41,983 bases of DNA, taken from IMG/VR virus record IMGVR_UViG_3300045988_031699, one strand, 5' to 3'. Shown one piece after another: positions 1 to 41,983 of this stretch (its first letter is position 1; each line of letters opens with the position of its first letter). A model generated the notes under the pieces. It did no database searches. It was not told where the DNA came from and saw only the letters and a program-made list of their open reading frames with translations. This stretch comes from a virus. Position numbers and translations under genes: made by a program.

Positions 1-80
1 CACGCATTGCCGGAGACCCACGCATTGCCGGAGACCTGCGCATCGCCGGAGACCCACGCATTGCCGGAGACCCACGCATT
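1..80 (-). repeat. 18-bp tandem coding repeat (left-edge portion: 4 full units plus a partial one)
   Basis: Units gccggagaccc[a/t][c/g]cgcat[t/c] at 9-26, 27-44, 45-62 and 63-80. Same unit family as 41479-41983. Confidence 0.9.
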
Positions 81-230
81 GCCATTGTTGGAGAGGTTTT
101 CTTCTTTTTCAACAAAACCTCCCAGTTCGCCAGCGCTTACGTCGCCAAAAGCGACGAGAGCCTTAATACGGAACAGCTTCTTCCCGAAAACGTTCGTTAC
201 AAATTCGGCGGTCAGTTCAAATTTCTTCAT
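1..230 (-). CDS. 5' part of hexapeptide-repeat protein (runs off the left edge; 3' part at 41236-41983)
   Basis: ATG at 230 behind AAAGGAGG. Translates MKKFELTAEFVTNVFGKKLFRIKALVAFGDVSAGELGGFVEKEENLSNNG, then GNAWVS/GDAQVS units. Absent from the ORF track because the window edge truncates it. Confidence 0.7.
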   Translation of the reverse strand, partial: MKKFELTAEFVTNVFGKKLFRIKALVAFGDVSAGELGGFVEKEENLSNNGNAWVSGNAWVSGDAQVSGNAWVSGNA

Positions 231-468
231 GGCTGGATGCCTCCTTTTGATACAGTCCGCACAGCAGATTCAGCGCCAGCAGGGCGGCGATGGTGGTGGG
301 GATGTTGAGAGAACCGAGCGCAGCCAGGAGCAGCACCAAATCTGCGGTGATTGCCAGCTTGACGGCGGCGCGGGTAAGTGATAGAATACAGTTAGAGCTT
401 TTTGCTATGCTCTGTTTTTTTGCCGTTCCGGTGGTGGTGCACCGGGGCGGCGTTTTTGTTTTTGTCAT
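217..468 (-). CDS. Small predicted membrane protein (hypothetical)
   Basis: ATG 468 with AAGGAG SD. Hydrophobic stretch LAITADLVLLLAALGSLNIPTTIAALLALNLLCGL. Co-oriented in the early leftward operon and overlaps the next start by 14 nt. Confidence 0.45.
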   Translation of the reverse strand: MTKTKTPPRCTTTGTAKKQSIAKSSNCILSLTRAAVKLAITADLVLLLAALGSLNIPTTIAALLALNLLCGLYQKEASSHEEI

Positions 469-472
469 GTGA

Positions 473-775
473 TCAGGCTCCTTTTAAAAAGTTAATCAAT
501 GCAGTACGCAGTTTTTCAAACTCTGTAATGTTGTCCTGCGAGGCGGTAGGCGTGACGGTAGATTTTGGCACGTCCGCCACCGGGTAATACGTTGCAAATT
601 CGTCAAGCGTGATGCCCAGTGCGGCGCATGCTTTGCCAACCTCCGGCCAGCGCCAATCATTAGCGCCGTTGATGCGGTTTGACATCTGCGTTTTAGACAA
701 GCCGCAGACATCTGCAAGGCGCTGTTTGTTGTAGCCCTTGTTTTTGATAAGAGCTGTAAAAGCAAGGTTTGTCAT
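473..775 (-). CDS. XRE-family HTH DNA-binding protein (second Cro-like early regulator)
   Basis: HTH core QRLADVCGLSKTQMSNRING. The best-spaced ATG (9 nt after AAGGAG) is at 775; the ORF track starts at 799. Confidence 0.75.
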   Translation of the reverse strand: MTNLAFTALIKNKGYNKQRLADVCGLSKTQMSNRINGANDWRWPEVGKACAALGITLDEFATYYPVADVPKSTVTPTASQDNITEFEKLRTALINFLKGA

Positions 776-838
776 GCTCATCATCTCCTTGTAACACATA
801 TCAAGAAGTTTTATACTGTGCGAAAGGGGGAAAATAGT

Positions 839-1215: not shown

Positions 1216-1950
1216 TTATAAAGCATTCAAGCACAGCAGTCGGAACATCTCACGGCCTTTAGGCGTGATAAGTGTCTGTGTGCCGCTCCACTTGGTTTTC
1301 TCGTTAAAGCACTCTTTAACCTCAAACAATCCGTTGTTTTTATCGGCGTATGGCATCAGCTTTGCTTTTTTATCTCTGTAGATGTATTTCTTTTCCATCA
1401 AAAAAGAGATAAACTTTTTCTCTTCAACTCCAAGTTGTTTCGCTGTCTCGCGGAAACTGGTAAGCAGGTTGCGGTCTACCAGCTCGTCAAAGTATTCAGC
1501 TTTCGGCTGCATGATAGCATTCTGAACCTTCAGCTCCGAAATCCTCGCCTCACGTTCCGCAAGCGTTTTGTTGGCAACCAGCAGGGCTTTAGCCATCAAT
1601 TCGGATGGGGTAAGCTGTTCCTGCCCGGCGATGTAACCACCGTTTTTGCGGATACTGGGCAAGACTTCACTGGTGACCCACTTGCGGAAGGGTTTGGCCT
1701 CCGGCTTGTCGCTGCGCAGGATGACGTTGTACAGGCCGCTCTCGTTGACAGCCGTCATTTCCTGTGCACCACCAAGGGTGTCCACTCTGACCGGCGCCCT
1801 TTCGTCATCGTCCAGCCGTTCGGCAGCATCCCGGTATTTGGAGATGCCCAGCACCTTGCACACGTCCTTCAGGACGAACCACGGTTCACCGTTCATCTCA
1901 ACCGTGCGTACATCGTTGTTTTCGTATTTAAAAATCTGAATGTTGTTCAT
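1216..1950 (-). CDS. Phage antirepressor (Bro-N type N-terminal domain plus ANT/KilAC-type C-terminal domain)
   Basis: MNNIQIFKYENNDVRTVEMNGEPWFVLKDVCKVLGI... is a classic Bro-N start. ATG 1950 behind AAAGGAGTG. Lies directly downstream of the Cro-like gene. Confidence 0.85.
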   Translation of the reverse strand: MNNIQIFKYENNDVRTVEMNGEPWFVLKDVCKVLGISKYRDAAERLDDDERAPVRVDTLGGAQEMTAVNESGLYNVILRSDKPEAKPFRKWVTSEVLPSIRKNGGYIAGQEQLTPSELMAKALLVANKTLAEREARISELKVQNAIMQPKAEYFDELVDRNLLTSFRETAKQLGVEEKKFISFLMEKKYIYRDKKAKLMPYADKNNGLFEVKECFNEKTKWSGTQTLITPKGREMFRLLCLNAL

Positions 1951-2003
1951 TCGCTCACTCCTTTCTTTCTGCAATTAGTTCACTTACAGCCGCTTCCATC
2001 TTT

Positions 2004-2413: not shown

Positions 2414-2776
2414 GTGGTTTGTGTGCGATACGTGGAAAAAGCCAAGAAAATAGCAAAGAAAAAAGGAATTGCCTTCACGCATATTAGTACAGAGCTTGGG
2501 AAAAGTCGTGGCTATTTGTCTGAAATGCTAGCAAACGGGCGCGATTTGCCAGAGCATATGCTAGCCGATGTTGCTAGTTTGCTAGGAGTTACCGTTGCCG
2601 ACCTGACCGGGGATTCCGAAAACAAAAAAAAGCCCCCCGCACAAAGCGATGGGCTAAAACTCGATTCCTATGAAGACATCGATCAGTGGCTTGACACTTT
2701 AGATGGCAAAGGTCTTGATATGGTAATTGCGATGGCAGCAGCAAAGAAGGTGAAAGTCAATGAAGATAAATCCTGA
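2414..2776 (+). CDS. CI-like XRE-family HTH repressor candidate (start codon uncertain)
   Basis: HTH FTHISTELGKSRGYLSEMLANGRD. Divergent from the Cro-like gene. GTG start without a clear SD, so possibly leaderless or a downstream GTG. Confidence 0.7.
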   Translation: MVCVRYVEKAKKIAKKKGIAFTHISTELGKSRGYLSEMLANGRDLPEHMLADVASLLGVTVADLTGDSENKKKPPAQSDGLKLDSYEDIDQWLDTLDGKGLDMVIAMAAAKKVKVNEDKS

Positions 2777-3194
2777 TTGCGTCCGAGATGTTATGCTCGG
2801 TCTTGAGGAACAGCTCGGTTTGTTCCTGAATGATAAATGCAGTATGGAGTTTGAATGTTCCAGCCCTGATAAGCTGAAAAAATCCTCTTTTATAAAGGGT
2901 AAAGGGTATTCACGGGAAGATTTGTTTTATTCTTGCTTGCAGGCTGCTGAAAATGGCTATATTGTGGCAGAATATCGAATAGACAAAGAACTCAGAACGA
3001 TAGAGTTTTTTTATATTATGTATATTACGCCAAAAGGCCATGACTTTATTGCGTCAATTTCCAATCAGCAGACGTGGCAGGAAAAAATAAAGCCCACCTT
3101 GTCAGCGGTGGGCAATGTATCTCTTACAGTAATTGAAACGATTGCAAAAGGTGCGGTAACTGCGCTTATTGAGCATCATCAATCCGGCTCTTAA
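2760..3194 (+). CDS. Hypothetical protein, winged-helix DUF2513/YjcQ-like (tentative)
   Basis: ATG 2760 overlaps the end of the repressor gene. N-terminus MKINPDCVRDVMLGLEEQL... and ...YITPKGHDFI resemble DUF2513-type proteins from memory. AT-rich. Confidence 0.45.
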   Translation: MKINPDCVRDVMLGLEEQLGLFLNDKCSMEFECSSPDKLKKSSFIKGKGYSREDLFYSCLQAAENGYIVAEYRIDKELRTIEFFYIMYITPKGHDFIASISNQQTWQEKIKPTLSAVGNVSLTVIETIAKGAVTALIEHHQSGS

Positions 3195-3577: not shown

Positions 3578-4489
3578 GTGGGCTTTTTTGACTTTTTGAA
3601 ACCGAAACAAAAAGTAAATGTTTCCATAACAACACATGAGTCGACTAAAGATGAAATTGCAAAGCAGTACGCTGGTTACTGCAAAGCACAAGCAGAAAAG
3701 CGGCACGCAGAACAGGAAGATCGTGCAAATGAGTATTTCTTGGAGCTTTCCGCCGATGACATTGCAGACAAAAATGGCCTAAAGCCAACAGAAATTTTAA
3801 TGCTTTCTTATTTAGAGAAATATTCCATCGGAAAGCCTGTTGCAAAGTTCTGGCATTATGATTATGGTGTTGATGATGTTTGGCCGATTATTAAAAAGCT
3901 GGAATCAATGGGATTTGCTGAAAACGGAAAATTGACCGAAAAGGGAAAAAAAGAAATAAAAGATAACGAATATGTTTATTTTTGGCATAGAAAGACTTAC
4001 GCTCGTGTGGCTTTTAACTTGCCTGAGTTTTGCCGTGCCGTAAATGCTCGAAGAGATATTCCGTATCGGGATTTAATATGGGAGAAATACAATAAACTAT
4101 ACATGGGAGCAATTTCGTCTCCCAAAAAATGTCGTGATTTACGATATTCTATGTATGAGTTTTTGGTAGACGAAAAAAAGTTTGAAACGGCTTTTTCTAT
4201 GCTACTTGAAATACCTTTTTATGATATGAACTGCCAATATCCTTTTATAGCTCCTAGTATTATGCAGGAACTAAAGAAAGCCCAAAAAAAAGCTGGCTTT
4301 ACTGAAGATCAAATTTTTGATATGGCAAAAGAAAGATACGGCAGGATGCTTGTTGAAAACCCAACTGTTCCTGCGATAGATGTCGCAGGTATTGTAACAT
4401 CTTACATTTTTGGAAAAGATGGTCTAGCTCAAAGAGTTTTGAAATCTTACAACATTGATTGCACCCGGCTGTTTTCTGGCAACCATTGA
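3578..4489 (+). CDS. Hypothetical 303-aa protein in AT-rich island (orphan; possible accessory/defence cargo)
   Basis: Long uninterrupted ORF with a GTG start (MGFFDFLKPKQ...). Visibly much more AT-rich than the phage backbone. No P-loop or nuclease motif seen. Confidence 0.6.
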   Translation: MGFFDFLKPKQKVNVSITTHESTKDEIAKQYAGYCKAQAEKRHAEQEDRANEYFLELSADDIADKNGLKPTEILMLSYLEKYSIGKPVAKFWHYDYGVDDVWPIIKKLESMGFAENGKLTEKGKKEIKDNEYVYFWHRKTYARVAFNLPEFCRAVNARRDIPYRDLIWEKYNKLYMGAISSPKKCRDLRYSMYEFLVDEKKFETAFSMLLEIPFYDMNCQYPFIAPSIMQELKKAQKKAGFTEDQIFDMAKERYGRMLVENPTVPAIDVAGIVTSYIFGKDGLAQRVLKSYNIDCTRLFSGNH

Positions 4490-5507: not shown

Positions 5508-5549
5508 AAAATCCCCTGCCGGTGGTGCCACACCAGCAAGGGATAAAGA

Positions 5550-5575
5550 GCCGTCAACACAAAAAAGTTGACGGC
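5550..5575 (+). terminator. Hairpin between HTH gene and integrase (weak terminator/attenuator candidate)
   Basis: GCCGTCAAC-N8-GTTGACGGC (9-bp stem) followed by ATTATTAT. A second imperfect hairpin lies just upstream at about 5512-5544. Confidence 0.4.
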
Positions 5576-5608
5576 ATTATTATAGCACATACAAAAAGGA
5601 GCCGCAAT

Positions 5609-6694
5609 ATGAAAAGGACAAATACCGCAAAATGGATTGAAAGCGCCGGGCGTTGGCAAATCAACGTGCAGAAGGACGGAGTGCGCAAGACGTTTACCAG
5701 CGCCAAGCCGGGCCGCACAGGCCAGAGGGAAGCTAACAAAAAAGCAGATGAATGGCTTGACATAGGCGTAAAGACGGAACGGATTAAGGTTTCTGACGCA
5801 TGGGAACAGTTGCTACAGCAGAAAAAACTTGTGTCTGATGCAGAATACAAAAATATGGCATCGTTCGGACGCTCCCATTTGCTGCCAGCCATCGGGATCA
5901 AGTCAGTAAAAGCCGTTACGGAACAGGATTTCCAAAAAATTATAGATTATGCGTTTCGCCATCCACAGGGGAACAGCAAAGAGCCCTTATCCAAAAAGAC
6001 ATTACAAAACTATGCAAGCTACTGCAAGCAGTTTGCGAATTTTTGCCGAAAATCGAAATGGACAACGCTTGAGCTTGAGGAGCTACAGATTCCGGCAGCG
6101 TCTAGAAAAAAAGGAAAGAACGTGCTGACAGTTGAAGCGCTCAACACGCTGCTAAAAGTAGATACGACCATCATGCGCGGAAAATCTGTGCATGATGAAT
6201 ACATAAATTATTATAGGTTTCAGGTGCTAACAGGCATGCGCCCCGGTGAAATGCGGGGGCTGCGATGGGAAGACGTTGACGGGAATCTGTGCAGACTGAA
6301 GCAGGCAATCAATGCGCACGGTCAAATCACGCAGGGAAAAAACGAAAACGCATTGCGCACGGTAGTGCTATCCAGACGAGCAGTGGACGTGCTGGAAGCT
6401 CAGAAAGCCGTGACTGGGAAGCAGACGTACATCTTCCCCATGGCATCCATGCACACCTACTACCACCGATGGCAGCGCTATCAGCGCTCTAATGACATGC
6501 CGGAGCTGAGCCTTTACGAACTGCGCCACACGTTTGTGAGTATCGCGAAGGAGTTGCCGACTGGCGAATTAAAGCAGCTAGTCGGGCATAGCGAGGATAT
6601 GGACACATACGGCACATACTCTCACTACATCGCTGGAGATGACGAACGGACAGCACAAAACTTACAAGAAATCTTTGATAGATTGGTGGACTAA
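5609..6694 (+). CDS. int: Tyrosine recombinase / phage integrase
   Basis: ATG 5609 behind AAAAAGGAG. Catalytic-type motifs GMRPGEMRGLRWEDV, ELRHTF, LVGHS and YGTYSHY. Adjacent to the attP-like site. Confidence 0.9.
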   Translation: MKRTNTAKWIESAGRWQINVQKDGVRKTFTSAKPGRTGQREANKKADEWLDIGVKTERIKVSDAWEQLLQQKKLVSDAEYKNMASFGRSHLLPAIGIKSVKAVTEQDFQKIIDYAFRHPQGNSKEPLSKKTLQNYASYCKQFANFCRKSKWTTLELEELQIPAASRKKGKNVLTVEALNTLLKVDTTIMRGKSVHDEYINYYRFQVLTGMRPGEMRGLRWEDVDGNLCRLKQAINAHGQITQGKNENALRTVVLSRRAVDVLEAQKAVTGKQTYIFPMASMHTYYHRWQRYQRSNDMPELSLYELRHTFVSIAKELPTGELKQLVGHSEDMDTYGTYSHYIAGDDERTAQNLQEIFDRLVD

Positions 6695-7417: not shown

Positions 7418-7831
7418 TTAACCGTTTCGCATCGTGTCAATGCAGCGCTGGATGACTTCCCTATCTTTGCTGTCAGCCCCGCGCATAATATCTTCCATGC
7501 GGGAAATCAGTGAATCGCGCCCATCGTCCATGCTGTAGTGCCCGCGCACATAATGCGAACCGCGCCGCGCATAGCTGCTGCCGCGTCCATAATTGCCGCG
7601 CATATTGGCGCTCCAATCACCATCGCGGCTGTAATCCTCATCGCGGCTGTAATCCTCATCGCGGCTGTAACCGTCATCTTCCAGCATGACAATTTTGTCG
7701 ATGTTTTTGATAGTGTCAGTCAGCTTGTGAACAGTTTCCAAGTCACCGGCAGACATTTCACCCTTCTTTCCGATTTCGTCCAGTTCTGCGCACAGCATGT
7801 CTTTCAAGTCATACAAAACTTTTTTGCTCAT
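7418..7831 (-). CDS. Cargo gene F: hypothetical 137-aa protein with acidic YSRDED repeat and R/G/Y/S-rich segment
   Basis: Helical N-terminus, (DGYSRD/EDYSRD/EDYSRD) from an 18-bp x3 repeat at 7622-7675, then NMRGNYGRGSSYARRGSHYVRGHYS. Confidence 0.6.
   Translation of the reverse strand: MSKKVLYDLKDMLCAELDEIGKKGEMSAGDLETVHKLTDTIKNIDKIVMLEDDGYSRDEDYSRDEDYSRDGDWSANMRGNYGRGSSYARRGSHYVRGHYSMDDGRDSLISRMEDIMRGADSKDREVIQRCIDTMRNG
7622..7675 (-). repeat. 18-bp x3 in-frame tandem repeat inside gene F
   Basis: atcgcggctgtaatcctc at 7622-7639 and 7640-7657; variant atcgcggctgtaaccgtc at 7658-7675. Confidence 0.9.
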
Positions 7832-29930: not shown

Positions 29931-30036
29931 AAACGCCCTCCTTTTTCTTTTGGCGTTGAATGAATTTCTGCATATCCCTTTTTAAGTACGGGCTGTCTGT
30001 CTTTTCGATTATTTTTCGCGCTTCTTTAATTGTCAT
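29896..30036 (-). CDS. Possible 46-aa ORF bridging MTase and TerS
   Basis: ATG 30036 (MTIKEARKIIEKTDSPYLKRDMQKFIQRQKKK...) is the only plausible part of track ORF 29896-30288. Its tail overlaps the TerS SD and start. Confidence 0.3.
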   Translation of the reverse strand: MTIKEARKIIEKTDSPYLKRDMQKFIQRQKKKEGVYGKNRTPAKRD

Positions 30037-31288
30037 TTCCCAAGCCTCGCACGATTGTCCATTCCCGCTCCGACAACTCCCAAATATTCGTGTTGACCTT
30101 TTCCGCAGCAGCCTTTTCCGCAGCAGCCTTTTCCGCAGCAGCCTTTTCCGCAGCAGCCTTTTCCGCAGCAGCCTTTTCCGCAGCAGCCTTTTCCGATAGC
30201 AAAAAGCCGGAGCCGAACAATCCTTTCCCCGACGCTTTCTGTGCGTCAAGCGCGCGGATAAAATGTGCATCTTTTTCGCTAATTTCAAGGCTTACGCCGT
30301 GAGCTGCCATATAACACAGCATCGTTGCTGTCAAAACCTCGTCTGGATATGAGTATTTCGGCAGTTCTCTGTGCAACTTTTTGAGATTCTTTTTGTTCTC
30401 GCCATCCAGAATTTCTCTTAAATCAGCGGCAGCGACAATCTTATGGCCTCCCATGTTGGTAACAAACGACGTATTGACAGACGCACCATTTTCATACACA
30501 ACTCCGCACCCGCACGCCACATAGTTTACTGCGCCGCGCATAATTCCGAGAAGCGTAAGCGTTGGAGCAAACAAAAAGAAGTTGATTCTCTTGCTTGTGT
30601 ACCACTCGCAGATTTCTGAAATAATGGAAAAAGGCGGATTGTCTATCACAACACACCCGGAAGGGTATTTCTCGCTTTTATAATCTCCGCCCGGATAAAA
30701 CGGGCGCACAATCGCGGCATTGCCAATTTCGTACTTCTCAACCGCCCAATCTTTTACTGTGTCGTAGATATTATCTGGCGTATAGCAATCGTCCGTTGTT
30801 TTCTTCGCTTCAAACTTTTTCAGAAACTCTTGATATTCTTCGTCATCGTCCGAAAGTTCCCCGCGCTCCATGCGTTCTCTAAATTCCTGTTCACGGTCTT
30901 CGTTAGTAATTTCCGTTTCGTCGGCATCTTGGAAATCCCAATCAAAATCAAACGCCGACAAATCCAACTCTGGCAGCTCATCTTTCAGCAGGTCGAAGTC
31001 CCAATCACTCTCGTTGCTTTTGTTATCTACCAGCCGCAGGGCATTCACCTGCTCTGGTGTCAAATCGTCCACACAGACGCACGGTACTTCTTTGATTCCC
31101 AGCTTTTTTGCAGCCAATGCGCGGCAATGCCCAATCACAATAATGTTGTTTTTGTCCACAACAACCGGCTGCACAAACCCATATTGCTTGATGCTTTCGG
31201 CAACATTTTTGATTTGCCTTGCATCGTGCTTTTTTGCGTTTTTTGAGTATGGCTGAATTTCTCCAAGCGCTTTCATTACAACTTGCAT
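30026..31288 (-). CDS. ParB-like N-terminal domain fused to an (N/D)PPF DNA methyltransferase, with (AAEKA)6 linker near the C-terminus
   Basis: ATG 31288 behind AAAGGAGG (the track's GTG 31321 lies inside a terminator). ParB-type KNAKKHDARQIKNVAESIKQYGFVQPVVV...GHCRALAAKKLG. Motif IV VVIDNPPFS. Confidence 0.75.
   Translation of the reverse strand: MQVVMKALGEIQPYSKNAKKHDARQIKNVAESIKQYGFVQPVVVDKNNIIVIGHCRALAAKKLGIKEVPCVCVDDLTPEQVNALRLVDNKSNESDWDFDLLKDELPELDLSAFDFDWDFQDADETEITNEDREQEFRERMERGELSDDDEEYQEFLKKFEAKKTTDDCYTPDNIYDTVKDWAVEKYEIGNAAIVRPFYPGGDYKSEKYPSGCVVIDNPPFSIISEICEWYTSKRINFFLFAPTLTLLGIMRGAVNYVACGCGVVYENGASVNTSFVTNMGGHKIVAAADLREILDGENKKNLKKLHRELPKYSYPDEVLTATMLCYMAAHGVSLEISEKDAHFIRALDAQKASGKGLFGSGFLLSEKAAAEKAAAEKAAAEKAAAEKAAAEKAAAEKVNTNIWELSEREWTIVRGLGNDN
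30097..30195 (-). repeat. 15-bp x6 perfect in-frame tandem repeat (codes AAEKA x6)
   Basis: ccttttccgcagcag at 30097, 30112, 30127, 30142, 30157 and 30172, plus a partial seventh. Confidence 0.95.
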
Positions 31289-31305
31289 AACTTCCTCCTT
31301 TATGC

Positions 31306-31337
31306 AAAACAAAAAGCCCACACAATTTGTGTAGGCT
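31306..31337 (-). terminator. Intrinsic terminator immediately upstream of the late operon
   Basis: Minus strand AGCCTACACA-AAT-TGTGTGGGCT (10 bp including one G.U that would be a C.A mismatch on the plus strand), then TTTTGTTTT. Ends about 18 nt before the late-operon SD. Confidence 0.6.
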
Positions 31338-37288: not shown

Positions 37289-37634
37289 GCAGCTTCAACG
37301 CCTCCTGCGTATTTACCTCGTCGCGTTGGATTTTCTGATAAAGCGGTGTGTCAAAGTGCAGGCACGCATGACAGGTGCGAGCAAACAGAACGTCAAACGA
37401 TTCGATTTTGTGCGGGAGAAATTTCTCTGCCGCCGTGCGCAGTTCGGCAACGGTGGGCGGGAATTTCAGTGTGGCGGCCAGATTTGCCGCGCCGCTCTTG
37501 GCCGCTTGCAAGGGGACATCTTTCAGTGCTGTGGCCCAGGCTTTTGTCATTTCGTCCGGGTCTTTTCCGCGCATGAGGTTTGCCCAGTAGTTGGTGCAGG
37601 ACAGCAGAAAGACGGCAGTTTCCTGTTCAGTCAT
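37275..37634 (-). CDS. G39P-like helicase loader (tentative)
   Basis: ...TKAWATALKDVPLQAAKSGAANLAATLKFPPTVAELR resembles loader-and-inhibitor-of-G40P proteins. Follows the replisome organizer. Confidence 0.5.
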   Translation of the reverse strand: MTEQETAVFLLSCTNYWANLMRGKDPDEMTKAWATALKDVPLQAAKSGAANLAATLKFPPTVAELRTAAEKFLPHKIESFDVLFARTCHACLHFDTPLYQKIQRDEVNTQEALKLHAKV

Positions 37635-38406
37635 CGGTGGTCACTCCTTTCGCGAGCTGCTTTAATCGCTCCATTGCGGCTGCGGCGTCTGTCTGGCGTG
37701 GCGTAGTGCGGGTCGCTTTAGCACTGTCGCGCTTTGCCTTGAAAGCTTCCACAGTGTAGATTCCTTCCTGCTCACAGCGTGCCAGGATTTGGGATATGTA
37801 ACTCCAACGCCGGGAGTTATGAACGGCGGCTTCTTCTATTGCCTGACAGATGATGGCGGCTGGAAATTTTTGCAGGGCCGCTTTGATTTCATCGGATACA
37901 GCGCGGGGGATGGAACCACAGTTCTGTTCATAGCACTGAATGCAGTCGGATAAATCCTGGTTATACAGGTCACACCCGGCGCCGCTGGCAGCAGTAGTAG
38001 CTATATATTCTTTACTTCTTACCTTCTTAGTATTAGAGGGTTTGTCGCTCGTTTGTCGCTCGTTTGTCGCTCGTTTGTCGCTTTGTTTGTCGCAAGCCTG
38101 ATAATCAGCGTAATTATTTATCGTGTAGACGGTAAATTTCGACGTTGATTTCTTTGTCACTTCGTTTGTCGAAATTAGCTTACTTAGAGCGGTGCGGATT
38201 TGCCGTGTTGTTAGCCCGAGTTTGACTTCCATTTCCTTTACAGTGGTAACAACTTGACCACGTTCCAAAGGAATGCCGCGATAGAACTTGTCTTCGTAGC
38301 TGGCAATTAGAAGCAGGTGAATGAACACATCTTTGGTGGGGCCATCATCATACCAGCCCCATTCGAGCATTTTTCTGTATAGCTTGATGAAGCCCTCGTT
38401 TGCCAT
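37627..38406 (-). CDS. Replisome organizer (phage rep-org N-terminal domain plus DnaD/DnaB_2 C-terminal domain)
   Basis: GFIKLYRKMLEWGWYDD...TTVKEMEVKLGLTTRQIRTALSKL; C-terminal ...RRWSYISQILARCEQEGIYT. Confidence 0.8.
   Translation of the reverse strand: MANEGFIKLYRKMLEWGWYDDGPTKDVFIHLLLIASYEDKFYRGIPLERGQVVTTVKEMEVKLGLTTRQIRTALSKLISTNEVTKKSTSKFTVYTINNYADYQACDKQSDKRATNERQTSDKPSNTKKVRSKEYIATTAASGAGCDLYNQDLSDCIQCYEQNCGSIPRAVSDEIKAALQKFPAAIICQAIEEAAVHNSRRWSYISQILARCEQEGIYTVEAFKAKRDSAKATRTTPRQTDAAAAMERLKQLAKGVTTDD
38041..38093. repeat. Iterons: TTTGTCGC x5 at 11/11/11/12-bp spacing (putative origin of replication)
   Basis: Copies at 38041, 38052, 38063, 38074 and 38086, inside the linker of the organizer gene and next to the AT-rich stretch 38001-38040. 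Confidence 0.6.
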
Positions 38407-40707: not shown

Positions 40708-41054
40708 CAAATAGATTCTCCTTCCGGGTCTGGTGTGGTCAGGTGGATGCGGTAGCACTCCGGCGGACAGGCGTGCTCCAACGGGATGGCACGAACTACA
40801 GGCTTTTCAATGTATTCACCATCCACGAACGTAAAAATTGTCATGTTGCGGCGACTGCCGCTGGAAAAAAAGCGCAGCTTAAAAGCATCTTCCAGCGCTT
40901 CAATTTCCTCTTTTGTAAGGCTAGACAAAGTCGTTCCAAATCCTGTTATGCTGTAGATTCGTGGGCGATTAGCCGCATACTTTACAATTTTTGCTACCGA
41001 TAAAAGCTGCGAGTATAACTGTAGCGCAATATTCGCTTTTTCCAATTGTGTCAT
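40707..41054 (-). CDS. Hypothetical 115-aa early protein
   Basis: Clean ORF, coupled on both sides. Confidence 0.5.
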   Translation of the reverse strand: MTQLEKANIALQLYSQLLSVAKIVKYAANRPRIYSITGFGTTLSSLTKEEIEALEDAFKLRFFSSGSRRNMTIFTFVDGEYIEKPVVRAIPLEHACPPECYRIHLTTPDPEGESI

Positions 41055-41239
41055 CTGTCATCCTCCATGCAGGCAGGTTCTTCCCAAGCGCCATCCTGGG
41101 TGATGCAGTTCTCACATCCAAGAATCTCGTTGCCTTGCTTATAAATGATGGTGCATTCATCGCCGCATACCGGGCAGCGGGGACGGCGGGGTTCGGCGGG
41201 CGGAAAGGGGTTGTCTTGATGGCCCCAGAAGCTAGTCAT
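41051..41239 (-). CDS. Small zinc-ribbon protein
   Basis: CPVCGDEC...GCENC. ATGA overlap with the repeat-protein stop. Confidence 0.5.
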   Translation of the reverse strand: MTSFWGHQDNPFPPAEPRRPRCPVCGDECTIIYKQGNEILGCENCITQDGAWEEPACMEDDR

Positions 41240-41983
41240 TCGTCGGCCTCCTGTTTTTCTTCCTCATCAGAAAAATGCAGCTCCATCAAGTCGGCAATCG
41301 CAAGGTACTCTTTGGCGTATTTGCTGTCGCCGTGAGTTTTCTTGACGATCTCACGGAACTTCGCCAAATCACCATAAAAGCAACCACACTGTACGCGGAG
41401 AATTTTATCCTTGCATCGGAAAAATGTGGTCGCGCGGAAGCAGTGACCAAAGCCTGTAACAACGGCGTAGTCTGCATCGCCGTAGACCCGCGCATCGCCG
41501 GAGACCCGCGCATCGCCGGAGACCCACGCATTGCCGGAGACCCACGCATTGCCGGAGACCTGCGCATCGCCGGAGACCCGCGCATTGCCGGAGACCCACG
41601 CATTGCCGGAGACCTGCGCATCGCCGGAGACCTGCGCATCGCCGTAGACCTGCGCATCGCCGTAGACCCACGCATTGCCGGAGACCCACGCATTGCCGTA
41701 GACCTGCGCATCGCCGTAGACCTGCGCATCGCCGTAGACCTGCGCATCGCCGGAGACCTGCGCATCGCCGGAGACCTGCGCATCGCCGTAGACCTGCGCA
41801 TCGCCGTAGACCCACGCATTGCCGGAGACCCACGCATTGCCGTAGACCTGCGCATCGCCGTAGACCTGCGCATCGCCGTAGACCTGCGCATCGCCGGAGA
41901 CCTGCGCATCGCCGGAGACCTGCGCATTGCCGGAGACCCGCGCATCGCCGGAGACCCACGCATTGCCGGAGACCCACGCATTG
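41236..41983 (-). CDS. 3' part of hexapeptide-repeat protein (5' part at 1-230)
   Basis: Third minus frame, absent from the track because it has no in-window start. 28 units (N/D)A(W/Q/R)V(S/Y)G, then ...YGDADYAVVTGFGHCFRATTFFRCKDKILRVQCGCFYGDLAKFREIVKKTHGDSKYAKEYLAIADLMELHFSDEEEKQEADE, TGA at 41236-41238. Confidence 0.75.
   Translation of the reverse strand, partial: NAWVSGNAWVSGDARVSGNAQVSGDAQVSGDAQVYGDAQVYGDAQVYGNAWVSGNAWVYGDAQVYGDAQVSGDAQVSGDAQVYGDAQVYGDAQVYGNAWVSGNAWVYGDAQVYGDAQVSGDAQVSGNAWVSGNARVSGDAQVSGNAWVSGNAWVSGDARVSGDARVYGDADYAVVTGFGHCFRATTFFRCKDKILRVQCGCFYGDLAKFREIVKKTHGDSKYAKEYLAIADLMELHFSDEEEKQEADE
41479..41983 (-). repeat. 18-bp tandem coding repeat, 28 units, with a 144-bp higher-order duplication
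   Basis: Units start at 41479+18k. Eight-unit block 41641-41784 is repeated at 41785-41928 with one mismatch. Confidence 0.95.

Follow-up and report, generated by a model that had tools for sequence, protein, structure and literature searches.

What protein is encoded by an 18-bp tandem repeat that lies, in two parts, at the opposite ends of a viral contig, and what could such a protein do for the phage that carries it? The contig in question is the IMG/VR record IMGVR_UViG_3300045988_031699, a stretch of 41,983 nucleotides that was analysed at its full length and that we call the window. Read on the minus strand, the repeat encodes an array of (N/D)A(W/Q/R)V(S/Y)G hexapeptides, which an earlier reading of the letters alone (the original prediction) had assigned to an early gene with a beta-helical product, speculating that this product might form filaments or mimic nucleic acid. 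In the analysis described here, the gene is found to be a member of a known and catalogued, if uncharacterised, phage family, PHROG 7964/5070, and the sequence evidence supports for its product a hexapeptide beta-solenoid fold of the type of YdcK, a protein crystallised from Salmonella (PDB 2F9C/2PIG). The window itself represents, in circularly permuted form, the genome of a siphovirus-like temperate phage from gut Clostridia, with a member of the Lachnospiraceae as its probable host, and both of its ends fall within this one gene.

The hexapeptide array and its two terminal domains

Tandem Repeats Finder, which was used for repeat detection across the window, reports 27.8 copies of the 18-bp unit with 92% matches at the right end (41474-41974) and a further 4.6 copies at the left end (1-83). 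In minus-strand translation, the right-hand part (41479..41983, frame 1) consists of 28 contiguous hexapeptides, all in frame and in register and of the NAWVSG, DAQVSG, DAQVYG and DARVSG types, which are followed by a C-terminal domain and a stop codon at 41238-41236. The left-hand part (1..80, minus strand) follows the segment MKKFELTAEF... (230-81) and holds 4 complete units plus 8 nt that run off the window start. The frame and the array are thus those that had been originally proposed, and so is the observation that the true frame is missing from the list of open reading frames (ORFs): because this frame runs off both window ends it was not listed, and a spurious MRGSPAMRGS... frame (41286-41981) stands in its place. 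Over the 28 contiguous units, variation is limited to nucleotide columns 1, 7, 8 and 14, the remaining 14 of the 18 columns being invariant. In other words, all changes from unit to unit are confined to three codons, namely the N/D, W/Q/R and S/Y positions named in the original prediction, and all of them are non-synonymous, while third codon positions never vary. Ala, Val and Gly are fixed in every unit, and Ala and Val are likely the inward-facing positions.

The complete protein is made of three parts: a 50-residue N-terminal cap, the hexapeptide units, and an 80-residue C-terminal domain with an invariant CGCF motif. The N-terminal part (MKKFELTAEF...NLSNNG; 81..230, minus strand), a predicted beta-hairpin cap with the first coil, starts with an ATG at 230-228 that has AAGGAGG upstream of it. 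It is homologous to residues 26-62 of YdcK in a phmmer comparison with 2F9C, and it is matched by PHROG 20149 as well as by the N-terminal portions of PHROG 5070 and PHROG 7964. The C-terminal domain (DADYAVVTGFG...CGCFYG...THGD...EYL...; 41239..41478, minus strand) finishes in an acidic tail, directly before the stop codon.

As for the family, the Pfam model PF18836 (B_solenoid_ydck) matches the protein with 138.9 bits (E = 3.9e-42) in 13 repeat matches, its gathering threshold being 30 bits. PHROG 7964 reaches 425 bits (E = 1.6e-127) in two stretches (its profile positions 189-268 are matched by the C-terminal domain on its own), and PHROG 5070 reaches 304 bits (E = 5.5e-91); what is more, PHROG 20532 matches the C-terminal domain with 147 bits. 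All four PHROG families carry the label "unknown function". The crystallised Salmonella YdcK is found by phmmer at 9.6e-20, with the N-terminal cap confidently aligned. That said, the NCBIfam equivalog model for YdcK, NF040481, scores 100.4 bits against a cut-off of 350, with only residues 18-129 aligning well. Because this score is so far below the equivalog cut-off, we consider the repeat protein a homologue of YdcK that shares its repeat and its cap, and not an orthologue. In particular, the YdcK proteins of E. coli and Salmonella (2F9C, 2PIG; PF18836; NF040481) have the homologous N-terminal cap and hexapeptide coils, but their coils are irregular and fixed in number, they are chromosomally encoded, and they have no CGCF domain, the alignment stopping before it. 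YdcK is grouped in the single-stranded left-handed beta-helix, trimeric LpxA-like superfamily.

The closest likeness is to the phage proteins of PHROG 7964/5070 themselves. A tblastn search returned 94 phage records, the best of which are Ruminococcus phage phiRM10 gp34 (61.6% identity at 98% query coverage) and Streptococcus phage Sfi19 orf229 (Sfi19p28). Both have the same succession of cap, array and CGCF domain as the window protein, which is longer (316-322 residues versus 229 in Sfi19 orf229 and 272 in phiRM10 gp34) and whose units are more uniform, with 4 variable nucleotide columns versus 10 in these relatives. In a large protein collection there are more than 7000 homologues at E<=1e-10. 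The family spans many bacterial phyla (Firmicutes, Bacteroidota, Proteobacteria, Actinobacteria, Saccharibacteria and others), and the closest relatives in genome scans come from Anaerostipes, Faecalimonas, Eubacterium and Lachnospiraceae assemblies. Across the family the unit follows the profile N/D, A (94%), R/W/Q/K/E, V (91%), S/Y/F, G (83%), which fits an arrangement in which small or aliphatic residues point inward and the variable ones outward. Neighbouring units tend to differ, as seen in a lag-1 anticorrelation between them (r from -0.10 to -0.18).

Would structure prediction lead to the same fold? AlphaFold2 was run on the full 322-residue protein (with an alignment of 66 sequences) and on a 190-residue homologue (33 sequences). 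In the model of the full protein, the terminal domains are predicted with confidence, with a predicted local distance difference test score (pLDDT) of 80-88 for the N-terminal and of 78-95 for the C-terminal domain, and the array exhibits a clean six-residue strand periodicity (EE----). The pLDDT of the array itself, however, is only 35-72 in this model and below 50 in that of the homologue, so low that neither handedness nor oligomeric state can be read from it. The structure prediction that had been proposed as a check is in this sense divided: it gives two well-defined ends, and it does not settle the fold of what lies between them. Because of this low confidence across the array, the solenoid assignment rests on homology to the solved structure. 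In a Foldseek search of the PDB, the top four matches are again 2F9C/2PIG, if weak ones (E = 7e-3, TM score of approximately 0.3), and the corresponding search of BFVD gave only family members and uninformative names. Taken with the Pfam match and the phmmer alignment that includes the cap, these hits favour the hexapeptide beta-helix that had been suggested from the periodicity.

The most constrained part of the protein is the C-terminal CGCF domain rather than the eye-catching repeats. It is a conserved alpha/beta domain, predicted by AlphaFold2 as four strands followed by helices, and its invariant residues are a G, the C-G-C-F, a further G and a Y. The original prediction had pointed to a Cys-containing C-terminal domain; such a domain is indeed present, but among its four Cys, conservation within the family is limited to the CGC pair. 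The domain occurs in 795 clusters at 50% identity, nearly always at the C-terminus, and is sometimes found stand-alone, behind other repeat types or behind a helix-turn-helix (HTH) domain. Foldseek found no match for it in the PDB. When its profile was compared with PDB and Pfam, the sole match was one of 26 residues in the PDB, to the GCFWG motif of yeast MsrA (3PIM, E = 0.046). MsrA, with GCFWG as its active-site motif, was considered as a candidate identity and rejected, the resemblance being only local: hhalign gives a probability of 1% over 12 columns. A PMSR Pfam match was absent in all 50 members tested for it.

Some individual proteins with this domain deserve a separate remark. In P0341, P0357, P0382, P0275 and P0283 the CGCF domain stands behind a CxFGxx-type repeat, pentapeptide repeats (as in P0382) or HTH domains, or makes up the whole protein (73-100 residues). 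On the other hand, the odd N-termini of some other CGCF proteins, such as P0255 and P0249, are the hexapeptide array translated out of frame.

Unit number and the broken ends of the contig

How many units does the array have? Between the window ends there are exact overlaps of 9 nt and of 27 nt, that is, the first 9 or 27 nt of the right-end array repeat the last bases of the left end. These exact overlaps, together with related contigs in which the intact gene keeps both of its flanking ORFs, are the reason for regarding the contig as a circle in which one gene is split by the ends. Closing this circle gives 32 units (322 residues) or 31 units (316 residues), only 28 of which are contiguous in the window. 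The figure of at least 33 units given in the original prediction presumes that the ends simply abut, and is not confirmed; plain abutment does keep the frame, but an aberrant NAC half-unit arises. Since the contig breaks inside the array, no unit number for the window can be trusted.

A second feature of the array concerns its higher-order structure. Namely, a block of eight units (144 bp) is present in two adjacent copies on the minus strand, units 10-17 (41641-41784) being the same as units 18-25 (41785-41928) except for one mismatch at position 41784. The recurrence had been noted before and stands. Its explanation by very recent unequal recombination is plausible, because higher-order block repeats are also present in a longer relative, L003, and in gp34 of the isolated phage phiRM10; in the window itself, such an event is inseparable from assembly error. 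Among phages with flanks 90-97% identical to those of the window, the array has 10-37 units (190-352 residues), and the L003 protein has approximately 442 residues. The terminal domains are more than 90% identical across the relatives with 10-37 units; the unit number is always whole and multiples of three are not favoured. There are also forms of 136-142 residues, mostly from k-mer assemblies, in which identical terminal domains enclose no more than 1-2 units. Overall, length variability within the family looks real. One of the short alleles, P0121 with 141 residues, was tried as a test of assembly collapse and discarded, as its downstream genes (DUF1351, RecT) differ from those of the window and it apparently belongs to a different mosaic phage.

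It is quite possible, if on balance doubtful, that both the unit number and the 144-bp duplication in the window are products of short-read assembly, in which loops of the repeat graph were mis-resolved and the real array is shorter, longer or differently ordered. The contig starts and ends inside the array with an ambiguous overlap of 9 or 27 nt, and so do others break there: of nine IMG/VR contigs sharing an exact 45-mer from the C-terminal domain, three stop within the array (among them the 99%-identical L010/L088, whose start lies in the block region), and many genome contigs and the record of Aeromonas phage PS end in the array as well. The 1-2-unit forms, which stem largely from k-mer assemblies, point the same way, and scans of Joint Genome Institute (JGI) metagenomes with the 198-nt block junction and with the junction between array and C-terminal domain gave 0 hits each. 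However, arrays of 25-37 and more units and eight-unit block repeats are also seen in further assemblies and in the genome of an isolated phage (phiRM10 gp34), chromosome-scale records contain matches of approximately 1.1 kb, and the one-base difference between the two blocks suggests that the assembler saw them as distinct.

Genomic setting

The solenoid gene is part of a minus-strand operon, in which it comes after the genes for the anti-repressor Ant (1216-1974, minus strand) and an HTH regulator (473-799, minus strand) and before those for NinB/Orf, SSB, a DnaD-like protein and RusA. In particular, the minus-strand order after the wrap-around is a 62-residue ORF, two unknown ORFs, NinB/Orf, SSB, the DnaD-like loader and RusA, with the large terminase further on. 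An integrase gene (5522-6691) lies on the plus strand, as does a repressor-like gene. In Sfi19 and phiRM10, the solenoid gene likewise follows cro/ant and is itself followed by Gam-like, single-strand-annealing and NinB genes, and in Mannheimia phage 587AP2 it adjoins RecT and an exonuclease. In phages of S. thermophilus, the genes adjacent to cro are early ones (PMC13575424). From this background and from the placement after cro/ant, an early expression class is a reasonable inference, and the designation of the gene as early in the original prediction is in agreement with position and synteny in the window, Sfi19 and phiRM10.

Two small neighbours flank the gene closely. Upstream of it there is a hydrophobic ORF of 83 residues (217..468, minus strand), which overlaps the solenoid start by 14 nt; its product, with a long hydrophobic stretch, looks like a small membrane protein. 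Members of this ORF family are found directly upstream of the gene in 20 related loci, and in phiRM10 the same position is taken by gp33, annotated as a transmembrane protein. Downstream, a 62-residue CxxC...CxxC ORF (MTSFWGHQDNPFPP..., MTSFWGH...; 41051..41239, minus strand) begins with an ATG that overlaps the solenoid stop codon (ATGA), and this overlap suggests translational coupling of the two genes. In 14 related loci, the gene directly downstream belongs to the family of this ORF. Neither of the two flanking ORFs has a Pfam, PHROG or PADLOC match.

A few further features of the window stand apart from the solenoid gene. Within the minus-strand early region and upstream of the repressor-like and integrase genes, there are two ORFs on the plus strand, encoding a DUF2513 protein (2760-3191) and an unannotated 303-residue protein (3578-4486), which may be moron or lysogeny-expressed cargo. 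Three other coding repeats were seen. The minus-strand ORF of the DnaD-like replication initiator (37627-38406) contains, at 38040-38093, 4.8 copies of the 11-bp repeat GCGACAAACGA; iterons within an initiator gene are a classic arrangement of phage replication origins. At 30097-30195, inside a minus-strand ORF (30026-31321), 6.6 copies of a perfect 15-bp repeat encode (EKAAA)x6 near the C-terminus of a 431-residue protein, and this stretch has the look of a linker helix. That the copies are 100% identical suggests either recent expansion or an assembly effect. Finally, 3.2 copies of an 18-bp repeat at 7621-7678, in the minus-strand ORF 7418-7831, encode (DEDYSR)x3 in a 137-residue protein of unknown function.

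What the protein may do

The explanation that in our view best accounts for these observations jointly, and that stands about an even chance of being right, is that the protein is a YdcK-type family member with a length-tolerant solenoid, serving as stalk or surface, and a constrained C-terminal domain, made early in the lytic cycle. Because each unit spans 18 bp and the units are nearly identical in DNA, whole units, singly or in blocks, would be gained and lost through unequal recombination or slippage during replication with the frame kept, and this would explain why any integer between 10 and 37 can be found between near-identical terminal domains. The solenoid would then be a non-enzymatic, rigid stalk or interaction surface whose length is tolerated to vary, in agreement with repeats that are perfectly regular and have no inserted loops. 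It would present the conserved C-terminal domain, a putative binding or effector domain and presumably the part under functional constraint. The protein would be produced early, from a transcript shared with its small neighbours and probably with its translation coupled to theirs, and it may act in host takeover or counter-defence, or else accompany the adjacent recombination and replication functions.

Other solenoid proteins invite different readings of the same array. Bactofilins (PF04519) are triangular beta-helices of hexapeptide-like repeats, and the window protein matches their Pfam model above threshold (47.3 bits versus a gathering threshold of 27.9, E = 2.5e-12); what is more, in some records, those of Mannheimia phage 587AP2 and of Xanthomonas phage MK21 among them, homologues go by the name "polymer-forming cytoskeletal protein". 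One could thus imagine a protein that polymerises into filaments, organising phage replication, for instance, or disturbing host division, but this seems to us rather unlikely. Namely, the bactofilin match is a secondary one, PF18836 scoring three times higher over the same residues (138.9 versus 47.3 bits), and the N-terminal cap aligns to YdcK. Bactofilins polymerise by end-to-end contacts and have a fixed domain of approximately 6 windings, whereas the window protein has a variable number of coils and, according to the AlphaFold2 model, folded caps at both ends (pLDDT 78-95) that would be expected to block such contacts. For the related idea of a trimeric left-handed beta-helix acyl- or acetyltransferase, one can cite the names given in several records, such as "putative acyltransferase", weak NCBIfam matches to the hexapeptide regions of NeuD, GlmU, LpxD and LpxA (E from 1e-7 to 1e-4), and the fact that V-x-G-x-A-x fits the pattern [LIV]-[GAED]-x2-[STAV]-x of the hexapeptide acyltransferases (LpxA, GlmU, NeuD; PF00132) at positions i and i+4. 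Yet the NeuD, GlmU, LpxA and LpxD models score only 19-30 bits against curated cut-offs of 160-666, and Pfam Hexapep itself (PF00132) reaches 12.8 bits against 27 (E = 0.1). The repeat is perfect, with neither loops nor conserved catalytic residues and with no His anywhere in the array, and a freely varying coil number is hard to square with a fixed active site. Given matches this far under threshold, and an array of perfect regularity whose length can change freely, we would give an enzymatic acyltransferase very little credence.

Could the array act through its charge, or even as DNA? In the first case, an acidic solenoid would mimic DNA, by analogy with anti-restriction proteins such as Ocr and ArdA, and trap restriction enzymes, RecBCD/AddAB-type nucleases or other DNA-binding proteins of host defence. 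Such rod-like repeat solenoids do exist: Qnr and MfpA are rod-shaped pentapeptide-repeat DNA mimics, and a few pentapeptide-repeat proteins from BFVD are among the Foldseek hits. The window copy is indeed acidic, with an isoelectric point (pI) of 4.46 and a net charge of -14 in the array, and it lies in an early region, the gene being located beside Gam-like or recombination genes in relatives. This property is not conserved, however: the net charge of the array ranges from -12 to +3 in close relatives, the pI of the whole protein has a median of 5.6-6.0 and a range of 4.6-9.6, with 19-21% of the members being basic, and no charge periodicity was detected in the array units. Qnr and MfpA, moreover, differ from the window protein in repeat length and in fold class. 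Because acidity is not shared within the family, a DNA mimic is disfavoured as a family property, the Asp-decorated nucleic-acid mimic of the original prediction finds no support, and we judge this role decidedly unlikely. Finally, the 18-bp array might function at the level of DNA, as a set of iterons, a CRISPR-like array, or a packaging or recombination site, with the coding frame being incidental. Direct repeats in tandem can act as origins of replication, and Vibrio phage records annotate homologous repeats as CRISPR spacers, but the hexapeptide is kept in different phyla by different codons (the nucleotide identity of the units is 0.72-0.88 in the Mannheimia phage, in Sfi19 and in phiRM10), the array, enclosed by conserved N- and C-terminal domains, invariably keeps the frame, and a better candidate origin is given by the 11-bp iterons at 38040-38093 in the DnaD-like gene. 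We thus regard a role as DNA as extremely improbable. The Vibrio phage records in question are MG592510.1, MG592418.1 and MG592419.1 (H63, H77 and H78); what they label as CRISPR spacers appears to be a misannotated tandem repeat of 18 bp that codes for protein.

Returning to the length-tolerant solenoid with its constrained C-terminal domain, several considerations weigh against this explanation, in addition to the low confidence of the array in both AlphaFold2 models. A lag-3 correlation of surface residues, which would have given independent support to a three-sided coil, was looked for and not found. Database names for the family are all "hypothetical" or guesses (acyltransferase, bactofilin, glycerol kinase), and in the literature on YdcK, Sfi19 orf229, prophage bactofilins and phage hexapeptide repeats we found no functional study of it. 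The spread in copy number comes largely from short-read metagenome assemblies, which often break or collapse at the array, and the adjacency to recombination genes may reflect the general layout of early operons. As far as defence is concerned, neither the protein nor its five neighbours match any family in PADLOC-DB 2.0 (0 families), a result of little weight either way, as this library covers defence and not anti-defence.

A more far-reaching version can be put forward for the family as a whole, although we consider it unlikely at present. In this version, the family would constitute a hitherto unrecognised and very widespread class of early host-takeover or counter-defence proteins, in which a solenoid stalk of rapidly varying length and surface presents a small conserved effector domain whose invariant CGC could be a redox-active or metal-binding CXC centre. 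The changes that recombination brings to coil number and surface residues would be selected in an arms race and not neutral. That this C-terminal domain also occurs behind solenoid repeats of other types would then mean that the combination of a solenoid with CGCF is a modular design.

What these results mean for the family is in part a matter of annotation. The array is a recurrent breakpoint of assemblies, and the labels given to it, CRISPR spacers, glycerol kinase, acyltransferase and bactofilin, are misannotations. The family is, at the same time, among the commoner unknown early genes of temperate phages, and if its members were indeed counter-defence or host-takeover factors, they would be a large addition to that repertoire.

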